64,000 nucleotides of DNA from an uncultured Gemmatimonadales bacterium (GTDB lineage: Bacteria > Gemmatimonadota > Gemmatimonadetes > Gemmatimonadales > Gemmatimonadaceae). The notes under the pieces are model-generated. The model ran no database searches. It was not told the origin of the DNA and saw only the letters and a list, made by a program, of their open reading frames with translations. Below are positions 43,286 through 64,000 of this stretch, one piece after another. A program made the position numbers and the translations under genes. Each line of letters begins with the position of its first letter. The stretch's first letter is position 1. Location: NCBI GenBank assembly GCA_963851265.1, contig CAWKNZ010000003.1:1-64000 (forward strand), read 5' to 3'.

Positions 43286-43302
43286 AGGGTTGTCACTGGC
43301 GG

Positions 43303-47687: not shown

Positions 47688-47748
47688 GGCGGGGGTGCAG
47701 GCGAATGCGGCCGAGCGGTGACGCGCACCGCCCGGCCTTCGACACGTC

Positions 47749-47774
47749 AACGCACGGCGGCGGCGAAGCGTTTA
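47749..47774 (-). promoter_or_regulatory. ECF-type promoter TAAACG-N16-CGTT
   Basis: TAAAC GCTTCGCCGCCGCCGTG CGTT, upstream of tolC-macA-macB. Confidence 0.75.
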
Positions 47775-47806
47775 GCGCCGCCGCCTTCGCACCCGCACCG
47801 TACTGC

Positions 47807-48394
47807 TTACGGCGTGCCCATACGCCCGCCCGACATGCCCCCGCCGCCGCGCGGTGCGCTCCGCGCCGCGCCGCTCAACTGCGCCTCGGCGAACGCGCTG
47901 CGGCGCATGTCGTCCTCCATCTTCGCGGCGCGCGCCCGCTGCTCCGGATTCAGCGCGGCCAGCGCGTCCTCGCGCGCCTGCGCCTCGGCGTCGCGCTGCG
48001 CACGGAGCGCGGCCGCCCGCGCGCGCAGCCGATCGCGCATGGCGACCCGATCGCTGTCGCTCATCGTCGTCCACACGTTCGGATCGCTCGGCGGCTTGAG
48101 CGAGGCGGCGCGCGCGCTGAGCGTGTCGACCGCCGCATCGCGGCGCACCTTGGCCGCGCTCACGCGCCCGACCTGCTCCGGGTTGAGCCCCAGGTCCGCA
48201 CGCCGCTCGAGCACCACGTCGACGAGATTGATGGTGTTCGGATCGCGCTTGGGACGTGCGTCCGCGCTATCCCGGTTGTCGCCGCCGCCGCGCGAACGGC
48301 CACCGCTGAACTGCGCGCGCGCGGGCAGGGCGGCGCCGGCGAGCGCGGCGAACGCGACCACGACCGGGGTCACGCGAGAGAAGCGGTGCGACAT
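47807..48394 (-). CDS. Secreted Spy/CpxP-like (LTxxQ) protein
   Basis: ARA signal cleavage site; LGLNPEQ and ALNPEQ motifs flanking helical segments. Confidence 0.72.
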   Translation of the reverse strand: MSHRFSRVTPVVVAFAALAGAALPARAQFSGGRSRGGGDNRDSADARPKRDPNTINLVDVVLERRADLGLNPEQVGRVSAAKVRRDAAVDTLSARAASLKPPSDPNVWTTMSDSDRVAMRDRLRARAAALRAQRDAEAQAREDALAALNPEQRARAAKMEDDMRRSAFAEAQLSGAARSAPRGGGGMSGGRMGTP

Positions 48395-48417
48395 GGAAGC
48401 GGCAGGCTGCGAGGGGA

Positions 48418-48460
48418 ACGGACGGGGAGCGCGGCAAACTACCCCGCGCTCCCCGTCCGT
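48418..48460. terminator. 17-bp hairpin downstream of the lipoprotein gene
   Basis: ACGGACGGGGAGCGCGG / CCGCGCTCCCCGTCCGT perfect stem with a 9-nt loop. Confidence 0.75.
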
Positions 48461-48480
48461 GTGCCGTAGTCAGCCGCCGA

Positions 48481-49494
48481 TCACGAGCAGCTCAGGCGGC
48501 CGCGCGGCAGCGGGAGCGTGCAGTTCTTGGTCGTGTCGTTCTGCACGATGACGACCTTCGCGGTGGCCGAGCCGTCGTACGTGACGACCTCGCGGCGCTT
48601 GGTCGTCGTCGCCGACCCGCCGGCGAGGGTGACGGTCGCCTGGGTGGCGCGGATCACCGTACCGGCCGTGGGATACACGCCCGACCCGGTCTTGACCGGG
48701 ATCACCAACCCGGTCGTCGTATCGCCCATGACGCGCGTAGCGCTGAACTTGGTGCTGTCGCTGAGTGTGCCGGAGGTCGATTCCTGCCCGGCCGAGGTGC
48801 CGTTGACCGTGCGCTGTGCGCTGCCGCCGGCGAGGCCGACGACGGTGCGATCGCTCACGGTGCTGACCGTGCTCGTCGCCGTCGCCACGGTCACGCGCGC
48901 GCTGTCGGGCCCGAAGCCGTGGCCGAAGCCGTGGTGATCACGCGGGGTGAACGTCGTCGTCCCGCTCACCTCGACGTGCGTCACGGCGGTGTTCGTCGTG
49001 GTGTCGAGGGCCTGCTGGGTCGCGCCCGCCGCGGTCGTGTAGATCGCGTAGCTCGAGATCGTCAGGCCGTTGAGAGTGGTCGGCGCGCAGGTGATGCGGC
49101 CCGTGCTCGCCGCGAACGTGCAGCTGGTGGTTGGGGCGCCGCCGAACGGGTTGCCGAACTCGCCGCGGCCGAAGCCCGGCCCGAAGCCGCCAAGGCCGGC
49201 GAACTCACCGCCGAGCCCGCCGCCCATGAAGGCGCTGAAGCCAAGGCCGCCGTCGCCGCCCCCGTCGTGGCCGCCGTGTCCACCCGGGCCGAACGAGCCG
49301 GTGTTTCCGCTCGCGTCGAAGCTGCTCGACACCATGTCATAACCGGGTGTCGCGCTGGTGAACGCGGTCGAGAGAAGGGCGGACGACGTCGCGGCCGCGG
49401 CGGCCGAGGGCGCAGTGGCGGTGTCGCTGCACGCGGCGGCGAGCACGCCGCCCAACGCTGCGACGCCGACGACGAGCTTGGGGAAGCGGGACAT
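48481..49494 (-). CDS. Thr/Gly-rich lipoprotein of unknown function
   Basis: LAAAC lipobox, Gly/Phe-rich segment, beta-rich Thr-rich body with Cys pairs. Confidence 0.8.
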   Translation of the reverse strand: MSRFPKLVVGVAALGGVLAAACSDTATAPSAAAAATSSALLSTAFTSATPGYDMVSSSFDASGNTGSFGPGGHGGHDGGGDGGLGFSAFMGGGLGGEFAGLGGFGPGFGRGEFGNPFGGAPTTSCTFAASTGRITCAPTTLNGLTISSYAIYTTAAGATQQALDTTTNTAVTHVEVSGTTTFTPRDHHGFGHGFGPDSARVTVATATSTVSTVSDRTVVGLAGGSAQRTVNGTSAGQESTSGTLSDSTKFSATRVMGDTTTGLVIPVKTGSGVYPTAGTVIRATQATVTLAGGSATTTKRREVVTYDGSATAKVVIVQNDTTKNCTLPLPRGRLSCS

Positions 49495-49599
49495 GCGGAA
49501 CGGCTCCGGAAGTTGGGATCTGGTGAAAGCGGACGGCGCGGCGCCTGGTCACCTGCGCATGGTCACTTGCGCGTGATCGCCTGGGCGGCGCTGCGTCCA

Positions 49600-49626
49600 A
49601 CACACGCGTCCGAAACGGGCCCCCTA
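49600..49626 (-). promoter_or_regulatory. Promoter candidate TAGGGG-N15-GTGTGT
   Basis: Identical boxes and spacing to 50295-50321. The TAG is the stop codon of the sigma gene. Confidence 0.7.
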
Positions 49627-50247
49627 CTCCGATCCCTCGTCCCCGCCCGGCAGCCACGGGCCGAGCCGGGCGCGGAGCAAGCGGAGGGCACGCCCCATCT
49701 GCGCCTCGACGGTTTTGGGGGAGATGCCGAGCCGCGCCGCGATGTCGCTGTATCGAAGACCCTCGGCGCGGCTGAGCAGGAACACCCGCCGGCAGCCCGG
49801 GGGGAGCGCCGCGACCGCCGCGTCGATCGCCGCGGCCAGTTCGCCCTCGACGGCCTGGGCGGCGGGGCTCGCGCCGGGCGCTGCCTCGTCGACGGCGAGC
49901 ATCGGAGCCGCGCGCGCCGCGACGCGGGCGTGACGCAGCCGGTTGAGCGCGCGGTTCCGCACCGCGCGGATCAGATAGGGGCCCGGCTCGTCGCCCGTGT
50001 CGAGCGTCGTGCGCCGACGCCACAACTCGAGCAGGACGTCCTGTGCGAGCTCCTCCGCCGCCGCGGCGTCGCGAAGCATCCGGTCGGCGACGCCGACGAG
50101 CGGGGCGTACCAGCGCCGGAAGATCGCGTCGAATGCCGCGGATGGTCCCGCGTCGTCGTCGGCCCCCTCGCGGAGGCGGGCGAGCAGGGCGCGGTCGTCC
50201 TCGATCGGCGAGTCGTCTTCGTCGAGCGGTGAAGCGTCGGAATGCAA
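49624..50247 (-). CDS. ECF sigma factor (FecI-like / Bacteroides-expansion type)
   Basis: AEELAQDVLLELW, YLIRAVRNRALN, LPPGCRRVFLLSR.EGL.Y, SPKTVEAQM. TTG start estimated. Confidence 0.9.
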   Translation of the reverse strand: MHSDASPLDEDDSPIEDDRALLARLREGADDDAGPSAAFDAIFRRWYAPLVGVADRMLRDAAAAEELAQDVLLELWRRRTTLDTGDEPGPYLIRAVRNRALNRLRHARVAARAAPMLAVDEAAPGASPAAQAVEGELAAAIDAAVAALPPGCRRVFLLSRAEGLRYSDIAARLGISPKTVEAQMGRALRLLRARLGPWLPGGDEGSE

Positions 50248-50294
50248 CAGGGCGGACGGAAGAAGGCGACGACCGGCTACCGAGCGGGCCCGCG

Positions 50295-50321
50295 TAGGGG
50301 TAGCGTTCGCCTCCTGTGTGT
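50295..50321 (+). promoter_or_regulatory. Promoter candidate TAGGGG-N15-GTGTGT
   Basis: Ends 8 nt before the FecR ATG (leaderless geometry). Confidence 0.7.
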
Positions 50322-50329
50322 ACAAGGGC

Positions 50330-51664
50330 ATGAACGGTCGCGAACCTTCGTCGAGCGCGTCGCCGGACCGGCCGGTTCCCGAGGGAACCGGGCCGGACTG
50401 GACGGCGATCGCGCGCCTCGTCGCGGGCGAGCCCGCGGCGAACGCCGACGAGCGCGCGCGCGAGGACGCCGCGCGCGCCTGGCTCGCCGCGCGTCCCGAC
50501 GAGGCGGCGCGGGTTGCGGCGCTCGGACGCGTGCTCACGCCGTCCGCCCTCGCCGACGTGTCGCGCGCCGAGGGCGCGGATGGATCGGGGCGTGTGGTCG
50601 ACGTCGAAGCCGCACTGGCGCGGGTACGGCGCGCCGCGCTCCTCGACCGCGCCCCGGCCGCGACCGCTGCGCGCGAGAGCACCGGGCCGCAGATCGCGAT
50701 CCCGCAGCTCACGGGTTCGCAGCTCACGGGTTCGCAGCTCACGGGTCCGCAACTCACGGTCGTGCGCGGCGGAGCGCCCCGCCCGCCCGCCTCCGAACCG
50801 GCGCGTGCCACGCCGCGGCAGCTGGTCATGCCCCGGCCGGTGCCGGCGTGGCGGCGTGCGGCCGGATTGGTGGCAGCCGCGGCGATGCTCACCGCTGGGC
50901 TCGCCTGGTGGCGGACGGGTGGACGGGTCGGCCGCACCCTGACCGATTCGGGCGCGGGCGGTACGACCGTCGCGCAGCACGTGGTGACGGCGGTCGGCGA
51001 GCGCCGGGTGCTCCCCCTCGCCGACGGGTCCGCGGTCGTGCTCGGCCCGGCGAGCACGCTCGACGTGCCGGCCGGCTACGGCGGCGCGGCGCGGCGCGTC
51101 CACCTCACGGGCGAGGCGTATTTCCGCGTCGTGCACGACGACCAGCGCCCGTTCGAGGTGGCGGCGGGCGACGCGATCGTGCACGACGTTGGCACCGCGT
51201 TCGTGGTCCGCGCCGGCGGCACCCCGGGCCAACCGGTCGACGTCGCGGTGACGACGGGAGTCGTCCGCCTGCAGGCGGCGGGTCCGGCGAGCCCGGGTAC
51301 CGAGCGGGACGGTGTGCTCCTCCGCGCTGGCGACCGCGGCCGCGTCGCCGCGGCGACCAGCGGCGCGCCGGCCGCGGCGGCCGTCGTCGCGCGTGGTGCG
51401 GACGTCGGGTCTGACACCGCCTGGACCACCGGCCACCTCGTCTTCCGCGACGCCCCGCTCGGCGACGTGGCCGGCGCGCTGCGTCGCTGGTACGGCATCG
51501 ATCTGCGCTTCGCGGACTCGGCGGTTGCGCAGCGCCACCTCACGGCCACCTTCGCGGGTGAGTCGACCGGCGCGGTGCTGCACGTGATCGAACTCGCCAC
51601 CGGGGCGCGCCTCGATCGCCACGGCGATACCGTCGTGGTGCGGGAGGCCGCGCCGTCCCACTGA
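50330..51664 (+). CDS. FecR-family anti-sigma factor
   Basis: TM segment, LADGS.V.LGPAS, LTGEAYF.V, VGTAF, AWTTG.L.F, LRRWYG. Confidence 0.93.
   Translation: MNGREPSSSASPDRPVPEGTGPDWTAIARLVAGEPAANADERAREDAARAWLAARPDEAARVAALGRVLTPSALADVSRAEGADGSGRVVDVEAALARVRRAALLDRAPAATAARESTGPQIAIPQLTGSQLTGSQLTGPQLTVVRGGAPRPPASEPARATPRQLVMPRPVPAWRRAAGLVAAAAMLTAGLAWWRTGGRVGRTLTDSGAGGTTVAQHVVTAVGERRVLPLADGSAVVLGPASTLDVPAGYGGAARRVHLTGEAYFRVVHDDQRPFEVAAGDAIVHDVGTAFVVRAGGTPGQPVDVAVTTGVVRLQAAGPASPGTERDGVLLRAGDRGRVAAATSGAPAAAAVVARGADVGSDTAWTTGHLVFRDAPLGDVAGALRRWYGIDLRFADSAVAQRHLTATFAGESTGAVLHVIELATGARLDRHGDTVVVREAAPSH
50703..50760 (+). repeat. 15-bp tandem repeat x about 4 in fecR
   Basis: CGCAGCTCACGGGTT units encoding (P/S)QLTG. 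Confidence 0.9.
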
Positions 51665-51669
51665 GCCGC

Positions 51670-54261
51670 GTGCCGTTTTCGGCGACGTCGCGCCGGCGCG
51701 CCCGGCGCCGGCGGGTGCGTGCCGCGCGCGCGGCGCGCGCGACCACGATGCTGGCTCTCGTCGCGGGTCCGGTGAGGGCCGGCGCGCAGGCCGCCGCGTG
51801 CACGCCGGTTTCGCTGCGCGACGCACTCGACCGTATTGCCGCAGCGGCGCACGCACGCCTCTCGTACAGCCGCGAGCTCCTAGACGTCGACCGCGCGGTG
51901 TGCGAGCCCGCGCCCAACGCACCGCCGCTGGCCGCGCTCGACGAACTGCTTCGCGGCACGGGCCTCGAAGCGGTGTCGGTGGGCGGCGGACAGATCGTGC
52001 TGACCCCGTCGGCGCACGCAGCCGGTGACGGGGTCGGATCGGCGTCGCGGCCGGCCGTGCTCGACCGCGTGGTCGTCACTGGGAGTGCAGCCGGCGCGCC
52101 CGCGCGCGGGCTCCCGGTCGCACTCTCGGTCGTCGACGGCACCGCGCTCGGCGCGCGCGCGACCACCGCATTCTCGACGGCGCTCGACGGGGTGATCCCG
52201 GGGCTCTGGGTCTGGACGCAGCCCACGACCACGCTGCTCGCGCGCTACGCCGGCCTGCGCGGCGCGAGCTCGTTCGGCCTCACCACGCCCAAGCTCTACA
52301 TCGATGGGGTGGAGGTCGCGAACCCGCTGTTCGTCACCTCGCTCATGCCCGACCAGATCGAACGGATCGAGGTGATCCGCGGACCGCAGGGGGCCGCGCT
52401 GTACGGGGCGGACGCGATCAGCGGCGTCATCAACATCGTCACGCGACACGACGGCGCGGCCAACGGCGGGCGCGACGTCACGCTTCGCAGCGGCGTGGGC
52501 GCCGCAGCCACGGCGTTCGCGCCGCGCCCCGCGTTCTCGCAGGACCAGGGACTCACGCTGCGCGCGGGCTCTGGCGCGCAAACCGGTGGGCTGTCACTCG
52601 GTTTCGCCACGCTCGGACCGGTCGTTCCGGGACGGACCGCGTACCAGTTCAACGCGCTCGGCAACGCACGCCGCATCGGGCAGAACGGCGTGCTCACGCT
52701 CACCGCGCGACTGGCCGACGCGATCACCCCGCCGAGCGACACCAGCGGACTCGGGTCTGCCGTCGCCGCGTCGCAGGCCATCGCGGCGATGCAGCACATC
52801 ACCCAACTCACGCTCGCGGCCAACCAGGTGCGCACGGCGGGGGGGCGCTGGACGCAGACGTTCACCGCAGGCGTGGACGCGTACCACCTGTCGGGCATGG
52901 CTGCCCCTTCGGTCGCCGCGCTCCCGGCGGGTGCGGACACGACGCAGCAGGGCGCGCGCGGCTCGGCCGCCCGTGGCACGCTCCGGGCGAGCACCACCGC
53001 CACGTACGACCCGGCGCGCGACGTTGCCGTGACCGTGACCGGCATCGCCGACTACGGCCTGCTGCGCGACGGCACGCAATACGACAGCCCCTACGGCATG
53101 TCGCAGTCCGGCGGCACGCCGCTCCCCCAGACCACGCCGACCTCGGGATACGCGCACGGCGGACTCACGACGTCTACGCCGGTGACCTGGCTGAGCACGG
53201 CCGGACTCGTGGGACAGACCACGGTCGCGCTCCGCGACGCGCTGTTCGTCACGGCCGGCCTTCGGGGCGAACGCAACGACGGCTTCACCGCCGCGAGCCG
53301 CACCGCGCTACTCCCGTCGCTCGGGGTGTCGGCGGTGCGGACCCTCGGCGGCGCGACGCTCAAGCTGCGCGGGGCGTACGGCAGCGGGCTCAAGCCGGCC
53401 CGCAACGAGGCGCGCACCCTCTCGTGGCACGCCATCGGCGGCGGCGCACTCCCGTCGTCTCTCGCACCGGAATCGCAGACCGGTGTCGAGGCCGGCGCCG
53501 ACCTGTTCCTGGGCCGCGCCGCGCGCGAGGGCGGGGCGGCGACGACGCTCGCGCTGCACGTCACCGGCTACGACCAACACGCGTCCAACCTGATCCAGCA
53601 GGTCGGACTCGCGCCGAGCGGGCGCGACCACGACCGGCGGTGGACCGAGCCGTCCGCCGACTGGGCGGGCACGTGGTCCGACGCCGATTCGGACGGCCAC
53701 CGCTACGGTCCGAAAGGTCTCGCCTACGAGCTGCAGAACGTCGGGGCGATCAGCAATCGCGGGTTCGAAGGTGAGACGCAGCTCCGTGCGACGCGCCCCG
53801 GCCGCGGCGTGCTGACGTTCGGGGCCACGGTCGCGTACGTCGACAGCCGGGTGACGCACACCGCGGACACCTATAGCGGCGAGCTACGCGCGGGCGACCG
53901 GGTGCTCGAGGTGCCGCGGTGGACGTTCGGCGCCACGGCGAACTGGCGCATTGCGGGCTGGGCCACCACGGTCGGGCTCGCGCGCGCGGCCAACTGGATC
54001 AATTACGACCGCGTTGCACTCGTACAGGCGGTCGGCGCGGGGCGCGCGGATTCGGCGCTCACCGGCCCCGCACTGCGCGCGTACTGGCGCACCTACGCGG
54101 GCGAGACGCGGCTCCGTGCCGACATCCTGCGCGAACTCACGCGCGGCCTCTCAGTGGTCCTGACCGGTGAAAACCTGCTCGGTCAGCAGCGCGGCGAGCC
54201 GGACAATCTCACCACGCTTCCCGGGCGGACCTTCACCGCCGGCGTCCGCGCCCGCTTCTGA
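51670..54261 (+). CDS. TonB-dependent receptor with N-terminal signalling (STN-like) domain
   Basis: LDRVVVTG TonB box, IERIEVIRGPQGAALYG..GVINIVT plug, LAPE, C-terminal VRARF. Confidence 0.93.
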   Translation: MPFSATSRRRARRRRVRAARAARATTMLALVAGPVRAGAQAAACTPVSLRDALDRIAAAAHARLSYSRELLDVDRAVCEPAPNAPPLAALDELLRGTGLEAVSVGGGQIVLTPSAHAAGDGVGSASRPAVLDRVVVTGSAAGAPARGLPVALSVVDGTALGARATTAFSTALDGVIPGLWVWTQPTTTLLARYAGLRGASSFGLTTPKLYIDGVEVANPLFVTSLMPDQIERIEVIRGPQGAALYGADAISGVINIVTRHDGAANGGRDVTLRSGVGAAATAFAPRPAFSQDQGLTLRAGSGAQTGGLSLGFATLGPVVPGRTAYQFNALGNARRIGQNGVLTLTARLADAITPPSDTSGLGSAVAASQAIAAMQHITQLTLAANQVRTAGGRWTQTFTAGVDAYHLSGMAAPSVAALPAGADTTQQGARGSAARGTLRASTTATYDPARDVAVTVTGIADYGLLRDGTQYDSPYGMSQSGGTPLPQTTPTSGYAHGGLTTSTPVTWLSTAGLVGQTTVALRDALFVTAGLRGERNDGFTAASRTALLPSLGVSAVRTLGGATLKLRGAYGSGLKPARNEARTLSWHAIGGGALPSSLAPESQTGVEAGADLFLGRAAREGGAATTLALHVTGYDQHASNLIQQVGLAPSGRDHDRRWTEPSADWAGTWSDADSDGHRYGPKGLAYELQNVGAISNRGFEGETQLRATRPGRGVLTFGATVAYVDSRVTHTADTYSGELRAGDRVLEVPRWTFGATANWRIAGWATTVGLARAANWINYDRVALVQAVGAGRADSALTGPALRAYWRTYAGETRLRADILRELTRGLSVVLTGENLLGQQRGEPDNLTTLPGRTFTAGVRARF

Positions 54262-54375
54262 GGAGCGAGCGACCGGCGCGGCCCTCGCGATTCGCGTGGG
54301 GCCGGACCGCTGCGCGGATCGCCGCGTCCGGCAGTCCCATCACACCACCGCCTGTCGACGCGTCTGACCGCCCGC

Positions 54376-54864
54376 TTACGGCCGCGGTCCTCTCGCGGGA
54401 TCGGCGCCGGGCCCGCCCGGGCCGCCGCCCGGGCCGCCCGGGCCGCCCGGGCCGAACCGGCCGCGCATCCGCCGCTCGTGCTCGGCGTGCGCCGAGTCGA
54501 ACCGGACACGCTGCTCGGGCGTGAGCACCGCGCGGACGTCCGCGCGCGTCGAGTCGAGGATCGCCCGCAGCGACTGTCCGGGGCCGCGCCAGAACCCGTC
54601 GATCTGTCCGCGGCGCGCCACGAGCACACTGTCGATCCGCGTGCGCTGTGGCGCACTCAAGCCGTAGCTCGCGATCGGTCCGCCGTCGAGCAACATCTCG
54701 TCGCGTGGCCCGCGGCGTGGGCCGCGTGCGCCGAATCGCGTTCCGACTCCCCAACCCGTGCCTGCCCCCGCCAGGAAGACGAGCAGCATCGCGAGCGCGG
54801 CGAGCCACCGCGTGTTCGGCGCCGCCGGTGACGGCCCCGCGTCCCCACCGTCGGCTAGGGTCAC
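54376..54864 (-). CDS. Membrane-anchored LTxxQ (Spy/ZraP-like) protein
   Basis: LLVFLAGAG TM segment, GLSAPQ and VLTPEQ motifs; GTGA overlap with the upstream gene. Confidence 0.75.
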   Translation of the reverse strand: MTLADGGDAGPSPAAPNTRWLAALAMLLVFLAGAGTGWGVGTRFGARGPRRGPRDEMLLDGGPIASYGLSAPQRTRIDSVLVARRGQIDGFWRGPGQSLRAILDSTRADVRAVLTPEQRVRFDSAHAEHERRMRGRFGPGGPGGPGGGPGGPGADPARGPRP

Positions 54865-55376
54865 GGAGCGCCCCCGAGCCCGATCGCGCGGCCGAGCGCG
54901 TCGACGCTCGGCGCACGCGCCTGGTCGGGCCACTGCGCGCTCGGATCGTGGAGACTGAGCGCCTGGACCGCCGACGCGTCGCTGAGTTCCTGCCCGGTCG
55001 CGGAGCCGGGGCCCGTTCCCAAGCGCGCGAGTCCCACGGCCAGCAGCCCGGCCGCCGCCGCCGCGAACAGGGCCGGGCGGAGCGCCCGCGCGAAGAGAGG
55101 GGTCAGCTCGTCGCGTCCGCGCGCGCGACCCGCGACGCGCCCGGCCGCGTGCGTCGTGCGGACGACGACGAGCGGCGGACGGCCGCCCCGAAGCGCGGCG
55201 CGGCGGGTGAGTTCGGCCGAAGCCGCGGCCTCGATCCGCCGCGCGAGCGCGTCGTACTCCGCCGCGCTGCGCGCGTACGCGCCGAGTTCGGGAGGCGGCG
55301 GCTCGGCCGCGAGTTGCGCGTCCGTCACCGGATCGAGGTCCGTAGGGGCCATGTCGTCGGCTCTGTGGTCCGTCAT
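54861..55376 (-). CDS. Single-TM putative anti-sigma factor
   Basis: ATGA-coupled to the ECF sigma gene; one TM segment. Confidence 0.6.
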   Translation of the reverse strand: MTDHRADDMAPTDLDPVTDAQLAAEPPPPELGAYARSAAEYDALARRIEAAASAELTRRAALRGGRPPLVVVRTTHAAGRVAGRARGRDELTPLFARALRPALFAAAAAGLLAVGLARLGTGPGSATGQELSDASAVQALSLHDPSAQWPDQARAPSVDALGRAIGLGGAP

Positions 55377-56011
55377 CGGTCAGCTCCGCGCCGCCACTCG
55401 GCGCTCAACCGCTCGCGGAGTGCGCGCCGCGCCCAGAACAGGTGCGCACGCACGGTCCCCTCGGCGATCCCTAGATGGTCTCCGATCTCGCGGTGGGTCC
55501 ACCCCTCCACGTCGTGCAGCAGTACCACGGACCGGCGCGTCTCGGTCAGCGACGCCAGCGCGGCGCGCAGATGGTCGCGCGCGTCGGCCCGTTCGGCCGC
55601 GTCGAGCACGCCCCCACCGGTCGACGCGGCCAGCGCGCCCGAGAGGCTCGCCGCGCGCTCGTCGTCGTCGAGCGATTCCGCGCGGCGCACGCGGGCACGG
55701 CGCCGCAGGTCGATGGCGCGGTTGCGCACGATGACGAGGAGCCAGGGGCGGAATTTCTCCGCCGGGCGGCACTCCTCGATGCGCGTCAGCGCGGTCACGA
55801 ACGCGTCCTGCGCGCAGTCGTCGGCGTCGGTGGGGTCGCCGAGTACCGACAGGGCGGCACCGCGTGCCGCGGCGAGGTGCCGCCGCACGAGGAGGCCGAA
55901 CGCGCCGCGGTCGCCCGCCACCGCCCCCTCGACGAGGACGGCGTCGGAGACGTCCGCGGGCGGCGCGCCCGCGGGAGGAACGTCCGCGGCAAACGCGTCA
56001 GCGGCAGCCAC
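55373..56011 (-). CDS. ECF sigma factor (RpoE/SigW-like)
   Basis: GDRGAFGLLV, DADDCAQDAF, FRPWLLVIVRN, EIGDHLGIAEGTVRAHL. Confidence 0.93.
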   Translation of the reverse strand: MAAADAFAADVPPAGAPPADVSDAVLVEGAVAGDRGAFGLLVRRHLAAARGAALSVLGDPTDADDCAQDAFVTALTRIEECRPAEKFRPWLLVIVRNRAIDLRRRARVRRAESLDDDERAASLSGALAASTGGGVLDAAERADARDHLRAALASLTETRRSVVLLHDVEGWTHREIGDHLGIAEGTVRAHLFWARRALRERLSAEWRRGADR

Positions 56012-56041
56012 CGCTTGCGAGACGGGCTGCGCGGAGCGCGG

Positions 56042-56515
56042 TCAGCCGTGCCCGGGGCCGCCCATCCCGCCCTGGCCGCCCTCGCGCATCCGCTGCTGGC
56101 CCTGCTCGCGCATCTTGGCCAGGTTGGCGTCGAACGTCTTCTGCTGATCGGGCGTGAGGATGGCGCGCATGGCCGTGCGCTGCGACTCCATCTCGTGGCG
56201 GAACTGCATCATCGTCGCGCTGTCCGGAGGGCCGCCCTGCATCATCTGGCTGCGCATGGCCTGCATGCGCGTGCGGCCGGCGGCCTGCACCGAGTCGAGC
56301 TGCGCGCGCTGCGCGTCGCTCAACGTGATGCCCTGCATCAGCATGCCCATGCCGCGCATGCCCATGCCGCCGCGGCCCGGACCGCCGGCCGGCGGCTGGC
56401 CCGCTGGGGGCTGGTCGCCTGCCTGCGCGGCAAGCACGGCCGGCGCGGCGCAGCAGATCGAGGCGATCGCCGCGGCGAACGCGACGCGGTGGGGAAAACG
56501 GAGGATCGAGATCAT
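56042..56515 (-). CDS. Spy/CpxP family periplasmic protein
   Basis: Signal peptide; ITLSDAQ and ILTPDQQ motifs; Met/Gln-rich helices. Confidence 0.85.
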   Translation of the reverse strand: MISILRFPHRVAFAAAIASICCAAPAVLAAQAGDQPPAGQPPAGGPGRGGMGMRGMGMLMQGITLSDAQRAQLDSVQAAGRTRMQAMRSQMMQGGPPDSATMMQFRHEMESQRTAMRAILTPDQQKTFDANLAKMREQGQQRMREGGQGGMGGPGHG

Positions 56516-56624
56516 GGCGGGACTCGCGAAAGCTACGGGTGGGGGTCGCACCGCAGCGAAGGACCGTGGCGTGCTGCGCGACGGCGGAGCGCTCGAGGGT
56601 GCGGTCGAGCGCTCCTGTCGAGAA

Positions 56625-56650
56625 GACGCGGAGCCGTCGGACAGCGTTTA
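56625..56650 (-). promoter_or_regulatory. ECF-type promoter TAAACG-N16-CGTC
   Basis: TAAAC GCTGTCCGACGGCTCCG CGTC, upstream of the spy-ECF operon. Confidence 0.78.
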
Positions 56651-56715
56651 AGCGTGGCCTTCAACCACGAGTTCGATCGCGGCGTTCGAGAGGTGCGGCC
56701 ACCGGCCGTCGCGGG

Positions 56716-56740
56716 TAAACGCGGGCCGACGGTGGGGCGT
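56716..56740 (+). promoter_or_regulatory. ECF-type promoter TAAACG-N16-CGT
   Basis: TAAAC GCGGGCCGACGGTGGGG CGT, divergent from the previous one, upstream of the Oar-like gene. Confidence 0.72.
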
Positions 56741-56820
56741 GTGCAGGGCGGGACGGAATCGGCACGCGCCGCGCGCCCCTCTCCTGCCCTTCCAGTGTAG
56801 CGCCCGTTCACGCCCGCCGT

Positions 56821-56880
56821 CGCGTGCCCCGCTCTCGCATGCCCCGCTCTCGCATGCCCCGCTCTCGCATGCCCCGCTCC
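56821..56880 (+). repeat. 15-bp tandem repeat x4 across the translation start
   Basis: CGC(A/G)TGCCCCGCTC(T/C) units, each with an in-frame ATG or GTG. Confidence 0.92.
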
Positions 56881-59800
56881 ATGCGCCGTTCCGCGCGCCG
56901 CGTCCGCCCCTGGCTCGCGGCCGTCGCCGTGTTCGCCGCCCCCGCGCTCGCCGCGCCCGCGGCCGCAGCGGCGCAGGTCGGCACGACCACCGACGTGCTC
57001 ACCGGCACGATCCGCGACCCCGCGGGCAAGCCGCTCGCCGGCGCGACCGTCACGGTCACGTCGGTCGAGACGCAGGTCGCCCGCACGCGCCAGACCGACG
57101 CCAAGGGACGCTACGTGATCGTCTTCCCCGAAGGCGGCGGGCGCTACCAGCTCTCGGCGCGCAGCATCGGCCTCGCGCCGCGCACGGTGCTCGTCCAGCG
57201 ACAGGTGGACGAGGACCAGCTGATCGCCAACCTCACGTTGGGCACGCCCGGCGCGAGCGGCACGCCGACGCTCGACCGCGTCGTCGTCCGCGGCCAGCGC
57301 AACGCGGGACGCGGCAACGACCGCCCGTCCCCGGGCTCGACCGAGCGCCTGCTCACCCCCGACCAGGTGCTGCGCCTGCCGATCGAGGACGCGAGCGACC
57401 TCACCGCCCTCGCCGCACTCGCGCCGGGTGTGGTGAGCATCACGGGCACCGACTCGACGGCGAACAGCTTCTCGGTCGCGGGGCAGCGCACCGACCAGAA
57501 CAACGTCACGCTCGACGGCATCTCGTTCGGGTCCAGCTCGATCCCGCAGGACGCCGTACGCAACACGCGCGTGATCACGAGCACGTACGACGTCGCGCGC
57601 GGGCAGTTCTCGGGCGGGCAGATCGCGAGCACCACGCGCTCGGGGACGAACCTGCTTCAGGGCAGCTTCACCGAGCAGTACCGCAATCCGAGCCTCGCGT
57701 GGTCGCCGGCTGGCGCGGGCGCGTTCGGCCAGAGCTACCTGCAGAACAGCTTCTCGGGCGGGATTGGCGGACCGATCATCAAGGACCGCCTGTTCGTCTT
57801 CGGCGCGTTCCAGCTGCGTGAACGCTACGACCCGATTCAGTCGCTCACGACGGCGAACGCGACGACGCTCGAGCGCCTCGGCGTGAGTCCCGATTCGGCG
57901 GCGCGCTTCCTCGGCGGCCTGTCGCAGTACGGCGTGGCGCCGACGCTCGCCGGGATACCGTCGCGACGCACCACCAACAGCGACCAGCTCTTCGCGCGCG
58001 TCGACGCCGTGCTGACGCAGAGCGAAACGCTCACGCTGCGTCTCGACGCCCGCCGTACGAGCGCCGACGCGACGCGCATCTCCGCACTCGGCCTTCCCTC
58101 GGCGGGAGGCACGCAGAGCCAGAGCGGCGGCGGCGTGTTCGGCTCGCTCACGTCGCAGTTCACCGCCACCGACGGACTCTTCGCCGGCGCGTTGATCAAC
58201 GAGGTGCGCGCCTACCGTTCGTTGGGCAAGCAGGCCACCGACGCGTACCTCGACGCGCCCGCTGGGCGCGTGCAGCTGATCTCCGCGCTGCCGGGGGCTG
58301 CCGGCACCGCCGGGGGCGTCGGGGCGACGGTGCTACAGTTCGGCGGCAACGCCTCGCTGCCGCAGGCGAGCAACAACACGGCGTTCGAGGGCACCGAGGA
58401 GCTGTCGTTCATCCCCGCCGGCCGGCCGCACCGCGTCAAGCTCGGCGCCCTGCTCAACGTGAGCGACCTCGACCAGACCACGGCGACCAACAGCCTCGGC
58501 ACCTACACGTTCTCGTCGCTCGCCAACTTCCTCGCCGACCAGCCCTCGCAGTTCACCCGCACGCTCTCGCCCACGCAGCGCCTGGGCGGGTCGGTGAACG
58601 CGGCCGTCTACGCGGGTGACACGTGGCGCGCCGGCCAGGGCGTGCAGCTGACCTACGGGCTCCGCGTCGAGCACTCCAACTACACCCACCCGCCCGCGGC
58701 GAACGCCGCGCTCGACTCGGCGTTCGGCGTGCGGACGGGCGCGTTCCCCACCGAGACGCACCTGAGCCCGCGCATCGGCTTCACCTGGGCGCCAGTCCGC
58801 GCCTCCGCGCCGAACGCGAACGCCGACGCACCGGGCGCGCAAGGCGGCGCGCCCGATGCGGGCGGACGCGGGGGTGGCGGGGGCGGCGGCTTCGGTGGCC
58901 GCGGGGGTGGCGGATTCGGCGGGGGCTTCGGCGGCGGTCGGACCGGCGGTCCGACGACGGTGATCCGCGGCGGCATCGGCGAGTTCCGCGGGCTGGCGCC
59001 TGCCGGACTGTTCGCCGCCGCGCAGGGCGCGCCGGGGTTCCTCGCCACGCAGTCGCAACTCGTTTGCACCGGGGCGGCCGTGCCCGCGCCCGACTACGGC
59101 GACTGGACGAGCGACCCCGCGGCCATTCCGTCGTCGTGCGTCGACGTTCCGATCGACGGCATTCCGGTGGGCGCGCCGGGCACTGGCGCCCGCCCCAATG
59201 CGGTCGTCATCGGGCAGGGGTTCCAGGCGCCGCGCGCATGGCGCGCCTCGCTCGGCGGCCAGCGGCGGGTCGGCGAGCGCACCGCCGTCTCGCTCGACCT
59301 CAACTACGCGCTCGGCGTGGCGCAGTACGGGTTCCGCGACCTCAACCTGAACACGGCGCCGCAGTTCACGCTCGCCGCCGAGGGCGGTCGGCCCGTGTAC
59401 GTGCCCGCGTCCAGCATCGTGCCGGCGACCGGGGCGCTCTCGCTGTTCAACTCGCGCGTCGACCCCGCCTTCGGCCGCGTCCTCCAGACGACGAGCGGGC
59501 TGCGGTCCGACACCAAGCAGGCCACGCTCGGCGTCAACACGAGCACCGCGCGCGGCCTCCTCCTGAGCGCGAGCTACACGTTCACGCGCTCGACCGACGA
59601 GTCGTCGTTCCCGGGATCGTTAGGCGGCGCGGGGGTCGCGGGCACCACGCCCGGCAACCCCAACCTCGTGCAGCGCGCCACCAGCGACCTCGAGCGCCGG
59701 CACCAGCTCCTCGCGACGATCACCTACCCGATCACGTCGACGGTCGAGCTGACGTCGATCGCCCGCCTCAACTCGGGCGCGCCGTTCACGCCACTCGTCG

Positions 59801-60759
59801 GCAACGACATCAACGGCGACGGCGCGCGCGACGACCAGGCGTTCGTGTTCAACCCGGCGGCCGCGTCGGACACGGCGGTCGCGGGCGGGATGCGCCGCGT
59901 GCTGGCCGCGGCGCCGGCGAGCGTGCGCCGCTGCCTCACCTCGCAGCTCGGCCTCGTCGCGGCGCGCAACAGCTGCACGGGCCCGTGGACCCCCTCGCTC
60001 GATTTTCAGGCCAACATCCGCCCGACCGTGTTCGGGCTCGACCGCCGCCTGTCGCTCTCGGTGTCGACGACCAACTTCCTCTCCGGGCTCGACCAGCTGG
60101 TCCACGGCTCCAACAACGTGCAGGGTTGGGGCAACCCGGGACGCCCGGACGCGACGCTGCTCACGGTGCGAGGCTTCGACCCCGCGTCGCGACAGTTCCT
60201 CTACACGGTCAACGAGCGCTTCGGACAGACGGGCGCGGGGGCGAACGCGTTCCGCGTTCCGTTCTCGTTAGGCCTCCAGGCGCGCCTGGCGATCGGACCC
60301 GACCCGGCGCGCGACCGGCTGCGTCAGGTGTTCGGCGATCCCGGCGCCAGGGGTGCCGACGCGTCCGCGGCGTTCAACGACCGCTTCGCGCGGCTGGTCC
60401 CCAACCCGATCGACACGATCCTCGCGCTCCGCGATTCGCTCGCGCTCACGCCGCCGCAGCTCGGGAGCCTCACGACCCTCCGCGATTCGCTCCGCGCCCG
60501 CAACGCGCCACTCGCGGACTCGCTGCGTGCGCGCCTCGCCGCGGCACAGAGCGCGCCCGACCCGCGGCAGGCGTTCGCCACGATCGCGCCGCTGCTGCAG
60601 CGCGCGAGGGCGAACGCCGCCGCGACGTTGACGGCCGCACAGGGAGTGCTGACGCCCGAGCAGTGGGCGCGGGTGCCGGAGAGCGTGAAGCGGCCGCCCC
60701 GCGGCGGGGTGGGCGGAGGAAGAGGAGCGGGACGACCGGGCGGCGCCGGCGGGCCGTGA
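56824..60759 (+). CDS. Oar-like TonB-dependent-type outer membrane protein with CarboxypepD_reg N-terminal domain and C-terminal LTxxQ domain
   Basis: LTGTIRD..G.PLAGATV, TDAKGRY, LDRVVVRG, GQFSGG..TRSGTN, SPRIGFTW. Start lies between 56824 and 56881. Confidence 0.9.
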   Translation: MPRSRMPRSRMPRSRMPRSMRRSARRVRPWLAAVAVFAAPALAAPAAAAAQVGTTTDVLTGTIRDPAGKPLAGATVTVTSVETQVARTRQTDAKGRYVIVFPEGGGRYQLSARSIGLAPRTVLVQRQVDEDQLIANLTLGTPGASGTPTLDRVVVRGQRNAGRGNDRPSPGSTERLLTPDQVLRLPIEDASDLTALAALAPGVVSITGTDSTANSFSVAGQRTDQNNVTLDGISFGSSSIPQDAVRNTRVITSTYDVARGQFSGGQIASTTRSGTNLLQGSFTEQYRNPSLAWSPAGAGAFGQSYLQNSFSGGIGGPIIKDRLFVFGAFQLRERYDPIQSLTTANATTLERLGVSPDSAARFLGGLSQYGVAPTLAGIPSRRTTNSDQLFARVDAVLTQSETLTLRLDARRTSADATRISALGLPSAGGTQSQSGGGVFGSLTSQFTATDGLFAGALINEVRAYRSLGKQATDAYLDAPAGRVQLISALPGAAGTAGGVGATVLQFGGNASLPQASNNTAFEGTEELSFIPAGRPHRVKLGALLNVSDLDQTTATNSLGTYTFSSLANFLADQPSQFTRTLSPTQRLGGSVNAAVYAGDTWRAGQGVQLTYGLRVEHSNYTHPPAANAALDSAFGVRTGAFPTETHLSPRIGFTWAPVRASAPNANADAPGAQGGAPDAGGRGGGGGGGFGGRGGGGFGGGFGGGRTGGPTTVIRGGIGEFRGLAPAGLFAAAQGAPGFLATQSQLVCTGAAVPAPDYGDWTSDPAAIPSSCVDVPIDGIPVGAPGTGARPNAVVIGQGFQAPRAWRASLGGQRRVGERTAVSLDLNYALGVAQYGFRDLNLNTAPQFTLAAEGGRPVYVPASSIVPATGALSLFNSRVDPAFGRVLQTTSGLRSDTKQATLGVNTSTARGLLLSASYTFTRSTDESSFPGSLGGAGVAGTTPGNPNLVQRATSDLERRHQLLATITYPITSTVELTSIARLNSGAPFTPLVGNDINGDGARDDQAFVFNPAAASDTAVAGGMRRVLAAAPASVRRCLTSQLGLVAARNSCTGPWTPSLDFQANIRPTVFGLDRRLSLSVSTTNFLSGLDQLVHGSNNVQGWGNPGRPDATLLTVRGFDPASRQFLYTVNERFGQTGAGANAFRVPFSLGLQARLAIGPDPARDRLRQVFGDPGARGADASAAFNDRFARLVPNPIDTILALRDSLALTPPQLGSLTTLRDSLRARNAPLADSLRARLAAAQSAPDPRQAFATIAPLLQRARANAAATLTAAQGVLTPEQWARVPESVKRPPRGGVGGGRGAGRPGGAGGP

Positions 60760-60790
60760 CGGCGCGCGTGGTCGCGTCGTCGCGGCCGCC

Positions 60791-62212
60791 TCAGCCGGCC
60801 AACCGCAGCGTCACGGTGAACGTCGACCCGCGCCCTTCTCGACTCCTCACCCGCAGGTCCCCGCCCATTCCCCGCGCCAGGTCGCGCGCGATCGCGAGCC
60901 CGAGCCCCGTGCCCTCATGCGCGCGGGTGTACCCCGCGCGTACCTGCACGAACGGCTGAAACACCGACTCCTGCCGCTCGCGCGGGATACCGATTCCCGA
61001 GTCCGTGACGCGCACGAACGCGACCCCGCCGCGCGTCGCGTCGCGTACCGCGGTGCGCGTGAGCACGGCCACCCGCACCCGCCCTCCCTCGGGCGTGAAC
61101 TTCACCGCGTTCGAGAGCAGGTTCACCATCACCTGAACCAGCTTCTCGCGGTCGGCCCACACCTCGTGCTCCCCTTCGGCCGGTGTTGGGCGCTCGAACA
61201 GGAGGCCCTTCGCCGCGAGCTGCGGCTCGACGAGCGGCGCCACCTGCTCGACGACCTCCGCCATCGCGACCGGCTTGACGTCGTACTCCACGCGCCCGCT
61301 CTCGAGCTTGGCGTAGTTGAGCACGTCGGTGATCAGGCCGAGGAGATGGCGTTGGGCGCGGTCGACGCGGGCGAGCGCGTCGCGCTGCGCGTCGGTCACC
61401 GGGCCGTGCAGTCCCATGTCGAGTAGCTGCACGTAGCCGGCGATCGCGTTGAGCGGCGTGCGCAGTTCGTGGCTCATGTTGGCCAGGAACTGGCTCTTGC
61501 TCTGGTTGGCGCTCTCGGCGCGCGCGCGCGCGGCTTCGGCCTCGGCGCGCGCGGCGCGCTCGGCCGCGTAGAGTTGTGCGCGTTCGACCGCCTGCGCGCA
61601 TTGCTGCGCGACCGCGAGAAGGAACGCCCGATCTTCCGGCGCGAAGGTGCGTGCCTCGTCGAAGTTGAAGCCGAGCGCGCCGACCGCCTGTGGGGTCGCG
61701 CCGTCGAGGCCCGGGGCGAGCAGCGGCACGGCGACCATCGCGCCGTCGCCGTTCTCTTGCGAGAGCGGCGCGAGGTGCGGATACCGGGCGCGGCGCGCCT
61801 CCGCCGACGTGAGGAGCAGCGGCTCGCCGCTGCGGACCACGTCGCTCAGCGGGAACTCGGACGCGAGCGGGATCCGCGCGTATCTCGCCATCGCCTCGGC
61901 GCTGTACCCGCACGAGGCGACGACGTTGAGCACCTGGCCCGGTCCGTCGGGATCGGCGGCGAGCAGTGCGACCGCGCCGCGGCGTGCGCCGAGCGCCCGC
62001 GCCGCGTGCTCGATGACGACCGCCGCGACCGCTTCGGGCGTGGCGGCGCGGACCAGCGCCCCCGTGACCGCGAGCAGCGCGTTCGCGCGCGCGACGGCCG
62101 CGTCGCGGACGTGGGTCGGAACGCCGTCGGTCCGACCTCCCGCCGCCGCAGGGCACGAAGGTTCGGGGCGATAGCTGTCGAACGACGAACGGGCATGGGT
62201 CGCGGCGGGCAT
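60791..62212 (-). CDS. Cytoplasmic GAF histidine kinase (orphan)
   Basis: GAF domain, [32 protein letters not shown]. Confidence 0.93.
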
Positions 62213-62265
62213 GAGCAGGTGACGACTCACGCCGCGGGCGGGCACCCGACCGACGCGCGACGAAC

Positions 62266-64000
62266 TTACGGTCGCCCGCCGCCGGGCGGTCCGCCGAACG
62301 CCTGGCGGAACGGGTTCTTGACGTCGTCGCCCACCTTGGCCCACTGCGCGGGCGTGAGGATCGCCTGCGACTGCTGCACGGCCTCCTCGAGGAGCTGGCG
62401 GCCGCGGGCGAGGTCGGGACGGATGGTCGAGAAGATGACCGCCGGGTCGGGGTTGCTGCCGAGTTTCTGGACCTTCGCGCGCAGGTCGGTTCGGAACCGC
62501 TGGTAGCGCGCCGCGAGCGAGTCACGCACGGGCTCGAGCTTGCGCACCTGCGCGGAGTCGAGGCCGAGCGAGTCGCGCAGGTCGATGAGCTTCGCGGCCG
62601 GGTTCAGGCTGGCGGCGAGCGCGGTGCTGGGTGCGGCTCCGCCCTGTCCGCCGCCGAGCAGGCCGGCGAGCGGACCGCCCCCGCCACCCCCGCCGCCCGG
62701 ACCGCCACCGCCCGGACCGCCGCCCCCGAAGCCGAACGCGCCGAAGGGGTTCGCGCCGTAGACGTATCGCGCCTGGATGCCGAGCTGGAACGTCTGCCGG
62801 AACACGGAGGCCTGGCCGGTCGTGTTCCCGAAGCGCTGGTTCACCGTGTACGAGTACGTCTGCGTCGTCGGGTTGAAGCCGTTGATCGCGAGCAGCGTCT
62901 GGTCGGGGCGCACCTGCTGCCCCCAGCCGCGCAGGTTGCTGGACCCGTGGAAGAGCTGGTCCAGCCCGGCGAGCGTGTTGAGCAGCGTGGCGGAGATCGT
63001 GAGGCGGCGTTGCAGGCCGAGGCGGTCGGGCTTGTAGTTGAACTGCACGTCGAGCCCCGGCACCCACGGCCCGCGGCAGCTGTTGCGCCCGGCCACCTGA
63101 CCGAGCTGCGACTCGAGACACGCCCGCGCCGAGCTCGGCGCGCTCGCGAGCACCTGCTGCATCGCGGCGGCGAGGGCGGGGTCGAGCCCCGGCGCCTTCG
63201 GGTCGAAGACGAACGCCGCATCGTTGCGCGCGCCGTCCCCGTTGACGTCGCCGTTGACGGTCGGCGTGTAGGGCGCGCCGCTCGTCAGGCGGCCGATGCC
63301 GGTGACCTCGAACGACGGGTTGAGCGGGAACGTCGCGGTCCCGATCAGGTTGTGCCGGATGTCCTGGTCGGCGCTCGCGAACGGCAGCAGGTTGGGGTTG
63401 CCGCGCGTGGGCGTCTGCTGGTAGCCGAACGCCGGCGGGCCGAACGCGTACGAGCTCTGGTCGCGGTTGCGCGCGACCGTCCACGACAGGTTGAAGATCG
63501 CCCCGCGCGAGCTGATGCCGTTGAGCGACGCGGTGACCTGCGCGTTGCGCGAGCGCAGCCCCGAGCTCACGTCGAGCACCTGGCCGAACGCCGCGTCGCG
63601 ACGGCTGGCGGCGAGCGACGTCGCGCCGGTGAGCGGCGAGATCGCGGTCGGCGAGACGAACACCGGCCGGTTGCCCTCCTGCGCGAGCGTGAAGCCCGAC
63701 CCCGCGGCGGTGTTGAGGTTCGCGTCGGTCACGCCGTACTGCGCGACGCCCCACGCGTAGCTCGCGTCGAGGCCCGCGGTCCAGCGCTCCCAGAAGCGGC
63801 GCGTGACGCCTAACGACGCGCGCACCGAGCGGGGGGAGCGGAAGTCGGGCGCGAACGCGGTCACCGAGGGCACCGCGCTCGAGGCGACCGCGCCCGGGAA
63901 GAGGGTCCCGGGGCGCTGCGTGCAGGTGGTCGGGATGGCCGACACGCCGCTCGCGAGGATCGCCGAGTAGTCCGGGCCGACGGGGTCGAGGCAGGTGATC
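62266..64000 (-). CDS. Oar-like outer membrane protein, C-terminal part (paralogue of 56824-60759); extends beyond the window
   Basis: Shared motifs: GVAQYG..D.NLNTA, SGAP.TP, DVNGDGARND.AFVF, CL.SQLG..A.RNSC.GPW, GLDQL.HGS.N..GWG. Confidence 0.9.
   Translation of the reverse strand, partial: ITCLDPVGPDYSAILASGVSAIPTTCTQRPGTLFPGAVASSAVPSVTAFAPDFRSPRSVRASLGVTRRFWERWTAGLDASYAWGVAQYGVTDANLNTAAGSGFTLAQEGNRPVFVSPTAISPLTGATSLAASRRDAAFGQVLDVSSGLRSRNAQVTASLNGISSRGAIFNLSWTVARNRDQSSYAFGPPAFGYQQTPTRGNPNLLPFASADQDIRHNLIGTATFPLNPSFEVTGIGRLTSGAPYTPTVNGDVNGDGARNDAAFVFDPKAPGLDPALAAAMQQVLASAPSSARACLESQLGQVAGRNSCRGPWVPGLDVQFNYKPDRLGLQRRLTISATLLNTLAGLDQLFHGSSNLRGWGQQVRPDQTLLAINGFNPTTQTYSYTVNQRFGNTTGQASVFRQTFQLGIQARYVYGANPFGAFGFGGGGPGGGGPGGGGGGGGPLAGLLGGGQGGAAPSTALAASLNPAAKLIDLRDSLGLDSAQVRKLEPVRDSLAARYQRFRTDLRAKVQKLGSNPDPAVIFSTIRPDLARGRQLLEEAVQQSQAILTPAQWAKVGDDVKNPFRQAFGGPPGGGRP

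Follow-up and report, generated by a model that had tools for sequence, protein, structure and literature searches.

A family of Oar-like TonB-dependent barrels from the Gemmatimonadota that continues into a C-terminal LTXXQ (Spy/CpxP-superfamily) domain

Architecture of P1 and P2

The stretch of DNA described here, termed the window in the following, comprises the first 64,000 nucleotides of contig CAWKNZ010000003.1 from an uncultured Gemmatimonadales bacterium (G000:C3:1-64000 in our numbering) and encodes, towards its end, two paralogous proteins, P1 and P2, in which an Oar-like TonB-dependent outer-membrane barrel is joined to a C-terminal domain of the LTXXQ (Spy/CpxP) superfamily. A preliminary description made from the sequence alone had proposed that both barrels run on into a Spy-like domain, and this was borne out by Pfam, by a profile of the family tail and by structure models of both the tail and P1. 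P1 occupies an uninterrupted frame (56824-60759, forward strand), whose probable ATG at 56881 yields a protein of 1292 amino acids (aa), the same length as in the collection's own gene call; residue numbers of P1 refer to the open frame of 1311 aa and not to the 1292-aa protein. Directly upstream of this ATG (56824-56880) a 15-base unit is repeated about three times, which gives the longer frame a repeated and probably untranslated N-terminus. P1 and P2 are identical at 581 of 1275 positions (46%), and in both proteins the chain goes on past the last strand without a stop codon, through a linker and a helical domain to an end rich in Gly (Table 1).

The domain assignment of P1 made use of an alignment of 149 full-length relatives (30-62% identity), the rows of which were picked from two relative searches. 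The core positions of the TonB-box-like segment are occupied by Leu in 133/149, Val in 100/149 and Val in 108/149 rows, a pattern which we read as a TonB box, and the genome holds 13 TonB_C matches. The barrel matches PF25183 (E 1.8e-46), and PF00593 gave no match on P1 in the Pfam scan. A structure model of P1 residues 150-1295, based on an input alignment of 62 rows, reached a predicted local distance difference test score (pLDDT) of 87 and a predicted template modelling score (pTM) of 0.88 and contains 22 long strands as counted by eye, the last of which (residues 1147-1157) is followed by helices only. When compared with solved transporters using a second structural aligner, Z values of 28-33 were obtained, whereby the plug aligned with solved plugs from about model residue 14 onwards, the alignment of all 50 solved entries listed ended at model residue 1008-1009, and the last chain residues of FecA, BtuB, Cir, FusA and YddB superposed on Ile1157. 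At the sequence level, a search of the solved structures with P1 returned nothing at E<0.45. The extension, earlier put at about 150 aa, amounts to some 155 residues past Ile1157.

Considering strand parity and established topology, the tail is predicted to face the periplasm, as is the Gly-rich insert (residues 661-708), and the model agrees with the barrel plus periplasmic helical hairpin that the preliminary description had expected structure prediction to show. Rough arithmetic gave a pTM of 0.77-0.84 for a free-floating and of 0.85-0.92 for a placed tail; as the value of P1 exceeds the free-tail estimate, the model probably docks the tail, which probably sits in a fairly fixed position under the barrel. 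Contacts between tail and barrel were also sought by mutual information (242 rows, effective 155), the signal of which was dominated by conservation and kinship. In the extracellular loops, Cys residues 748/772 and 1037/1051 are invariant (149/149) and probably form two disulfides; an Asp-rich loop near residues 995-1004 is likewise invariant and resembles a calcium site.

A review describes G-x-x-aromatic-x-aromatic at the C-terminus as the canonical beta-signal and also some outer-membrane proteins that do without a C-terminal signal (PMC13067283). The canonical form is not found in the P1 family, as the strand is internal and its two positions are aromatic in only 37/149 and 15/149 rows; the position of the terminal Phe is aliphatic (Leu, Val or Ile) in 132/149 rows and aromatic in 15/149. 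P2 retains two Tyr at these positions. Since the alternating last strand is nevertheless intact, the beta-signal appears to be internal and degenerate rather than missing. The earlier statement that both proteins end without a beta-signal thus holds insofar as a terminal aromatic is lacking, and fails insofar as the signal is displaced inwards. As had been noted correctly, the receptor at 51670-54261 terminates in Phe. At other sites of the genome, two Oar-like paralogues without a tail stop at the last strand, with Phe at the terminal or next-to-terminal position.

Table 1. Features of P1, P2 and their surroundings (window coordinates unless stated otherwise)
Feature	Position	Strand	Remarks
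P1	56881..60759	+	Oar-like TonB-dependent barrel plus LTXXQ domain at C-terminus; 1292 aa
P1 signal peptide	56881..56973	+	basic N-terminus, then hydrophobic core and Ala-rich cleavage site preceding Gln; by inspection
P1 N-terminal extension, CarboxypepD_reg (PF13620)	56998..57219 (residues 59-132)	+	Pfam E 2.4e-16
P1 TonB-box-like segment	57271..57294	+	L-x-x-V-x-V-x-A pattern; alignment of 149 rows
P1 plug domain	57328..57645	+	PF07715 E 0.0013, below its cut-off; also model and structural alignment
P1 barrel	57658..60294	+	PF25183; 22 strands counted by eye on model
P1 Gly-rich disordered insert	58804..58947 (residues 661-708)	+	turn of strands 12/13; pLDDT <50
P1 last strand	60262..60294 (residues 1147-1157)	+	putative internal degenerate beta-signal; Ile1157 is end point of solved transporters
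P1 linker	60295..60399	+	two short helices; not present in barrel-less form
P1 LTXXQ (Spy/CpxP-superfamily) domain	60400..60690	+	two LTxxQ motifs flank long helical hairpin
P1 low-complexity end	60691..60756	+	Gly/Pro/Arg-rich; from sequence
P1 ECF-type promoter	56716..56742	+	TAAAC-N17-CGT; kept in G401, G404, G283
Second site before P1	56663-56685		AAC-N17-CGT
Divergent promoter	56624..56650	-	same type; before free LTXXQ / ECF / anti-sigma operon
P2	62266..64000 (whole gene G000:C3 62266-66054)	-	1262 aa; paralogue, only 3' part in window
P2 last strand	62758-62790	-
P2 LTXXQ core	62317-62607	-
GAF-HisKA-HATPase kinase	60791..62245	-	no membrane segment; local bystander insertion
Free periplasmic LTXXQ protein (Spy-like)	56042..56515	-	head of divergent operon
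ECF sigma factor	55373..56011	-	likely reader of TAAAC-N17-CGT, judged from promoter before own operon
Probable anti-sigma factor	54861..55376	-	one membrane segment, no Pfam match; role judged from position
Membrane-anchored small helical protein	54376..54864	-	weakly Spy-like (tail profile E 0.006); no Pfam match; CnrX-like position
TolC - membrane fusion protein - MacB-like permease operon	genes 43303-47687, site at 47774	-	same promoter type
Small barrel	40133-40750		preceded by TAAAC-N17-CGT site
Membrane kinase	40791-42155		two membrane segments; preceded by TAAAC-N17-CGT site
Barrel-less examples (other genomes)	L136:4568-5320 (G228), L149-L156

The tail domain, its distribution and its natural variants

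The tail of P1 alone matches the LTXXQ family PF07813 with 28.8-29.3 bits (residues 1202-1283), the curated cut-off being 24.3; when the whole protein is used, the score of 24.0 bits falls just under it. Among the tails of the family 89/102 are recognized at E<=0.01. P2 has no Pfam LTXXQ match on its own and was assigned by the profile of the family tail (E 5e-25), whose next matches in the genome include free LTXXQ proteins. Within the 149 rows the two LTxxQ motifs are nearly invariant (Leu1208 95%, Gln1212 97%, Leu1276 96%, Gln1280 98%), and a model of the tail (pLDDT 86.5) shows a helical hairpin between them. Structural comparison placed five members of the superfamily within its top 31 rows, with Z values of 6.2-7.6 overall: CnrX (Z 7.6, 3.5 A, 99 residues), STV (Z 7.5, 3.1 A, 95 residues), CpxP (Z 6.5, 2.6 A, 90 residues), ZraP (Z 6.5, 2.5 A, 71 residues) and Spy (Z 6.4, 2.6 A, 82 residues). 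The tail profile found weak matches only among the sequences of solved structures (STV, E 0.059), and neither P1 nor P2 matches the Spy or CpxP models of NCBIfam (Spy equivalog NF007769). The predicted homodimer of the tail scored 0.00, which is uninformative for or against a dimer.

Conserved His and Met residues are the metal ligands of the CnrX and ZraP sensors (Met123 is named in a PDB title). As no His, Met or Cys column of the tail core exceeds 12% in the 149-row alignment, metal sensing by the tail was rejected. As a separate observation, the tail carries three triplets of Asp, Ser/Thr and a hydrophobic residue (window 60433-60525), with Asp conserved in 98%, 96% and 72% of 105 sequences; such triplets are also frequent in nearby secreted proteins and resemble the O-glycosylation site of Bacteroidota.

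With P1 residues 950-1300 as query, 1044 of 8000 scored proteins were recovered, and the 120 listed span 95-100% of the query. All of the 105 close relatives possess a tail of 139-185 aa; in the wider alignment it measures 139-220 aa in 147 rows, the other two breaking off inside it. Barrel frames in the fetched loci carry the tail in 107/117 cases; of the others, four run into a contig end, four have a frameshift and two are truly short. A missed stop codon or a chance helical extension, for which one could cite P2 with its missing Pfam match, is therefore practically ruled out by the tail in 147/149 diverse relatives and its near-invariant motifs.

The genome survey covered the Gemmatimonadota, where the tail profile at E<=1e-8 matched 182/401 genomes, namely 88/93 of the own family, 76/166 of the next family and few in other orders, with up to seven matches in some genomes; the weakest of these matches may be free LTXXQ proteins, and the unpublished genome G157 is counted in these tallies as well as in those of conservation. 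The 80 named loci all derive from Gemmatimonadota or unassigned bacteria, as do the named members of ten distant clusters, the representatives considered being the best 150 of 1007 strong ones. According to the names given by the source, isolates with the gene include Gemmatirosa kalamazoonensis (P0014) and strain T265 (P0005). PF07813 is already shown on some members in precomputed Pfam annotations, so the fusion is visible in databases and apparently undescribed: in line with what the preliminary description had supposed, no description of a barrel-LTXXQ fusion was found in the literature searched, which comprised listings and abstract starts. Both parts are of known kinds; apparently, it is their fusion that is new.

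Natural deletion forms of either part were identified. Five barrels (L094, L105, L139, L140, L141; 1070-1084 aa) end 4-18 residues past the last strand and possess neither tail nor terminal aromatic, and their ratio of nonsynonymous to synonymous substitutions (dN/dS) of 0.17-0.25 in 10/10 pairs documents purifying selection; some of the genomes concerned also carry a tailed copy. Conversely, a barrel-less protein of about 245 aa consists of a signal peptide, the N-terminal extension of the family (CarboxypepD_reg), a TonB box and the LTXXQ core, whereas the plug, the barrel and the helices of the linker are missing. It occurs in 8/16 genomes of genus g5 (8/401 in the order), both of its halves match the P1/P2 family best, and its dN/dS is 0.12-0.27 in 28/28 pairs, with synonymous sites near saturation. 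Barrel and tail hence are separable modules: the tail-less form shows that those barrels can fold without it, while selection on the barrel-less form suggests a job of the tail beyond the folding of its own barrel. Both forms provide ready-made natural controls, the tail-less members also being natural test cases for the rules of the beta-signal. Short tail matches, 17 of 114 of which were inspected, comprised 16 fragments of the barrel family and one free LTXXQ protein.

Promoter and gene neighbourhood

The most conserved context of the family is a promoter motif, AAC-N17/18-CGT, which precedes 38/55 relatives as compared to 45/323 other genes; shuffled controls gave a mean of 6.1 (maximum 14) and wrong spacings 5-6/55, although the 55 relatives are kin and not independent. 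Judged by consensus sequences, we take this motif to be of the extracytoplasmic function (ECF) type. The ECF promoter previously ascribed to P1 was thus recovered, and its conservation suggests that an ECF sigma factor activates expression of the family. For P2 no such site was found in its intergenic region. In L143 (G238) and L144 (G095), members of the family stand in tandem, and every copy has an AAC-N17-CGT site of its own.

Window 39911-56742 contains at least five sites of the form TAAAC-N17-CGT. They precede P1, the free LTXXQ/ECF/anti-sigma operon, the TolC operon, the membrane kinase and the small barrel, are mostly kept in G401 and G404 and may mark a compact envelope regulon. Genome-wide, the motif was found before 149/3790 genes (own gene calling). 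High-scoring AAC-N17-CGT sites also lie at a second ECF sigma factor and at a sigma-70-type gene, named by inspection (G000:C2:464011-464667 and C2:664166-665053), so that promoters of this class may be read by, or drive the genes of, more than one sigma factor. Among the neighbours, 20/351 are motif-positive.

The preliminary description had P1 and P2 converge around the GAF kinase; P1 indeed converges on the kinase and P2, the latter two being encoded on the same strand. As partner in the system the kinase was rejected, as it is cytoplasmic and absent between P1 and P2 in 2/2 same-genus genomes examined (G401, G404), with P1 and P2 converging directly in G404. The divergent ECF/anti-sigma/LTXXQ cassette with matching promoters was found in the own genus and in G283.

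Further genes of the island are noted here for completeness. The MacB-like gene shows permease domains only in Pfam, and its operon is without an ATPase gene. Upstream of the TolC operon (47807-48394, reverse strand) a further free LTXXQ-like protein is encoded (Pfam E 0.024, tail profile E 1e-4), which brings the Spy-like domains of the island to as many as five. A lipoprotein-like beta-rich protein (48481-49494, reverse strand) without Pfam or NCBIfam match occurs in G401 but not in the G404 stretch, and window 49624-54261 holds a complete FecI/FecR/STN-receptor set, the receptor of which has plug and STN matches and no Pfam barrel match.

Possible functions and comparison with known systems

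Whether the tail acts as a chaperone or in signalling, and in which direction transport would run, is a matter of inference from these data. As a tentative reading, held with less than even confidence, P1 and P2 may be TonB-driven conduits for polypeptides with a tethered holdase. This is based on the tail being an LTXXQ domain, on Spy, a dimeric ATP-independent holdase chaperone (PMC8144458), on Oar, which exports a protein, the protease PopC (PMC6434023), and on the Foldseek ranking of the P1 barrel, which is led by YddB (6.5e-31) and FusA (3.2e-30); these two also gave the longest alignments with the second aligner (658 and 681 residues, against 516-623 for the other 48 rows). FusA imports ferredoxin, and a periplasmic clamp was proposed to serve as ratchet (PMC6071955; PMC6793856). 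Signal peptide, extension, TonB-box pattern, barrel and tail are located in one conserved frame, and modelling predicts a plug within 22 strands, the tail leaving strand 22 at the periplasmic side in a roughly fixed position. Expression would be turned on by an ECF sigma factor, as the motif statistics suggest, and the barrel assembly machinery (BAM) would engage the last strand as internal beta-signal while the tail stays periplasmic. Next, TonB would pull the box, the plug would open and a peptide or partly unfolded protein would thread through. At the periplasmic side the chain would be bound by the LTXXQ domain, which probably pairs with another such domain, and would be kept from slipping back or aggregating and finally be handed on. 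Import towards periplasmic peptidases is slightly favoured over an Oar-like export of a periplasmic protein; 9 of the 23 best-scoring promoter sites of the genome precede peptidase genes (M13, M14, S9, zincin, TldD, S41), a tally for which 17 genes, selected from the site list by eye, were retrieved and scanned.

Several findings weigh against the polypeptide conduit. The cut at 23 sites was chosen afterwards and P1 itself ranks 38th, the motif precedes 1/14 further operon-leading paralogues of those peptidases and 0/5 DegP genes, and genes with signal peptide are not enriched for it (16/188 versus 116/1790); a general secreted-protein or DegP regulon is thus unsupported. Clustering of the neighbours of 80 loci, which included no scan for M16, revealed no conserved protease or other specific partner. 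A linked periplasmic protease is likewise absent from the window, and a DegP-like cluster (named by inspection) occurs in 5/80 loci. The comparison of the tail model is topped by a designed bundle (Z 8.0), and Foldseek returned no match at E<=0.001, the highest probabilities being those of STV (0.69, 0.63); as Z values of 6.2-7.6 are common among helical arrangements, the LTXXQ assignment rests on motif, profile and structure jointly. With a median net charge of +1 (n=147, range -15 to +7) the tail core is close to neutral, as opposed to the basic Spy cradle. For the barrel, ordering by Z-score places FecA first (33.4), FusA fourth (30.4) and YddB 48th (27.8), hence size may account for the resemblance to protein importers. 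The Oar domain order accounts for 28% of all TonB-dependent transporters (PMC6434023) and is hardly informative on cargo. Finally, the tail-less barrels under purifying selection indicate that transport can apparently run without the tail.

In its boldest form, which we regard as unlikely, the polypeptide conduit would be a self-contained TonB-powered protein translocator in the outer membrane of Gemmatimonadales, in which a single ECF-stress-induced chain unites pore, gate and an ATP-free Spy-type ratchet and moves unfolded polypeptide, with the barrel-less sibling as soluble TonB-coupled chaperone module.

Alternatively, and rather doubtfully, the tail may be a signalling adaptor, which like CpxP, CnrX or ZraP would bind an anti-sigma factor or sensor kinase across the periplasm and release it upon loading, misfolding or loss of the barrel, the transporter thereby reporting the state of the outer membrane to its own ECF sigma factor. 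CnrX, CpxP and ZraP score at least as high as Spy against the tail model, the strong conservation of the ECF-type promoter fits such a role, as do the divergent cassette with its matching promoters and the same promoter before the kinase with two membrane segments, and the barrel-less form could be a soluble decoy. The cassette, however, already has a free LTXXQ protein and an anchored Spy-like protein of its own and is not a conserved neighbour in the 80 loci, and its anti-sigma factor, used as single-sequence query, matched only the own genus (4/41 genomes). The lack of a metal site in the tail and the cytoplasmic, non-conserved nature of the adjacent GAF kinase also speak against the adaptor.

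That the tail is instead a structural part, which latches plug and extension, pairs barrels as a dimer or aids folding without terminal aromatic and binds no cargo, is unlikely as well. The pTM suggestive of a placed tail, the aliphatic residue at the position of the terminal Phe and the direct joining of extension and tail in the barrel-less form, as if they were one unit, would agree with it, and Spy is a dimer (PMC8144458); yet tail-less barrels without terminal aromatic are under selection, and so is the tail even where the barrel is gone.

Most TonB-dependent transporters import small nutrients, and P1 might be such an importer of an oligosaccharide, metal chelate or vitamin with the tail as fused periplasmic binding or buffering module, which we consider quite unlikely. 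FecA, PirA, Cir and BtuB lead the second aligner by Z-score, and Gemmatimonadota are rich in secreted carbohydrate enzymes (PMC11495043), but no SusD partner or substrate-specific cluster recurs beside the family. A SusC/SusD test with TIGR04056 gave 12-14 bits against 368, and no co-directional lipoprotein gene follows P1. The missing metal ligands of the tail likewise disagree with a nutrient importer, and LTXXQ proteins are known only as protein or metal binders.

Among known systems, Oar of Myxococcus xanthus and the transporters of its architecture share signal peptide, CarboxypepD_reg, TonB box, plug and 22-stranded barrel with P1 (PMC6434023), which adds about 155 residues with the LTXXQ domain past strand 22 and has no terminal aromatic. 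With respect to the Oar subclass as defined by Pfam, the PF13620/PF13715 extension is present and the PF00593 barrel match absent, hence P1 is Oar-like in architecture only and orthology is not implied; the survey in the paper that defines this subclass gives N-terminal architectures only (PMC6434023). FusA and YddB with their M16 proteases FusC and PqqL resemble P1 in the Foldseek ranking, the long alignments and a periplasmic partner gripping an unfolded chain (PMC6071955; PMC6793856), but share 11-13% identity with it, and the periplasmic partner of P1 is fused and non-catalytic and its promoter of the ECF type, as opposed to iron control. In Spy, CpxP, ZraP, CnrX and Salmonella STV (2.5-3.5 A rmsd) a long helical hairpin is likewise flanked by two LTxxQ motifs; these proteins are small and free or anchored in the inner membrane, whereas the P1 domain forms the C-terminus of an outer-membrane barrel, is neutral in charge and is without metal ligands. 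The periplasmic domain of OmpA is C-terminal. OmpA-type proteins likewise join a barrel, whose last strand is an internal beta-signal, to a periplasmic domain (PMC13067283), but OmpA has eight strands and a domain that binds peptidoglycan. In FecA/FecR/FecI, an example of which adjoins the P1 locus at 49624-54261, an ECF sigma factor is likewise tied to a transporter that has a periplasmic domain; there, signalling proceeds via the N-terminal STN domain, while the extra domain of P1 is C-terminal and helical and has no anti-sigma factor as conserved neighbour.

In the TonB-dependent transporters solved so far the chain stops at the last strand, and the additional domains known from such proteins are N-terminal. 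Here, nearly all genomes of one bacterial family carry a predicted 22-stranded barrel whose putative beta-signal is internal and mostly non-aromatic and which is followed by a folded C-terminal domain in the periplasm. This has a bearing on how folding by BAM begins; and if the tail should be a holdase, the family would offer a one-gene test of how TonB-dependent barrels move proteins and of what gives direction in the ATP-free periplasm.

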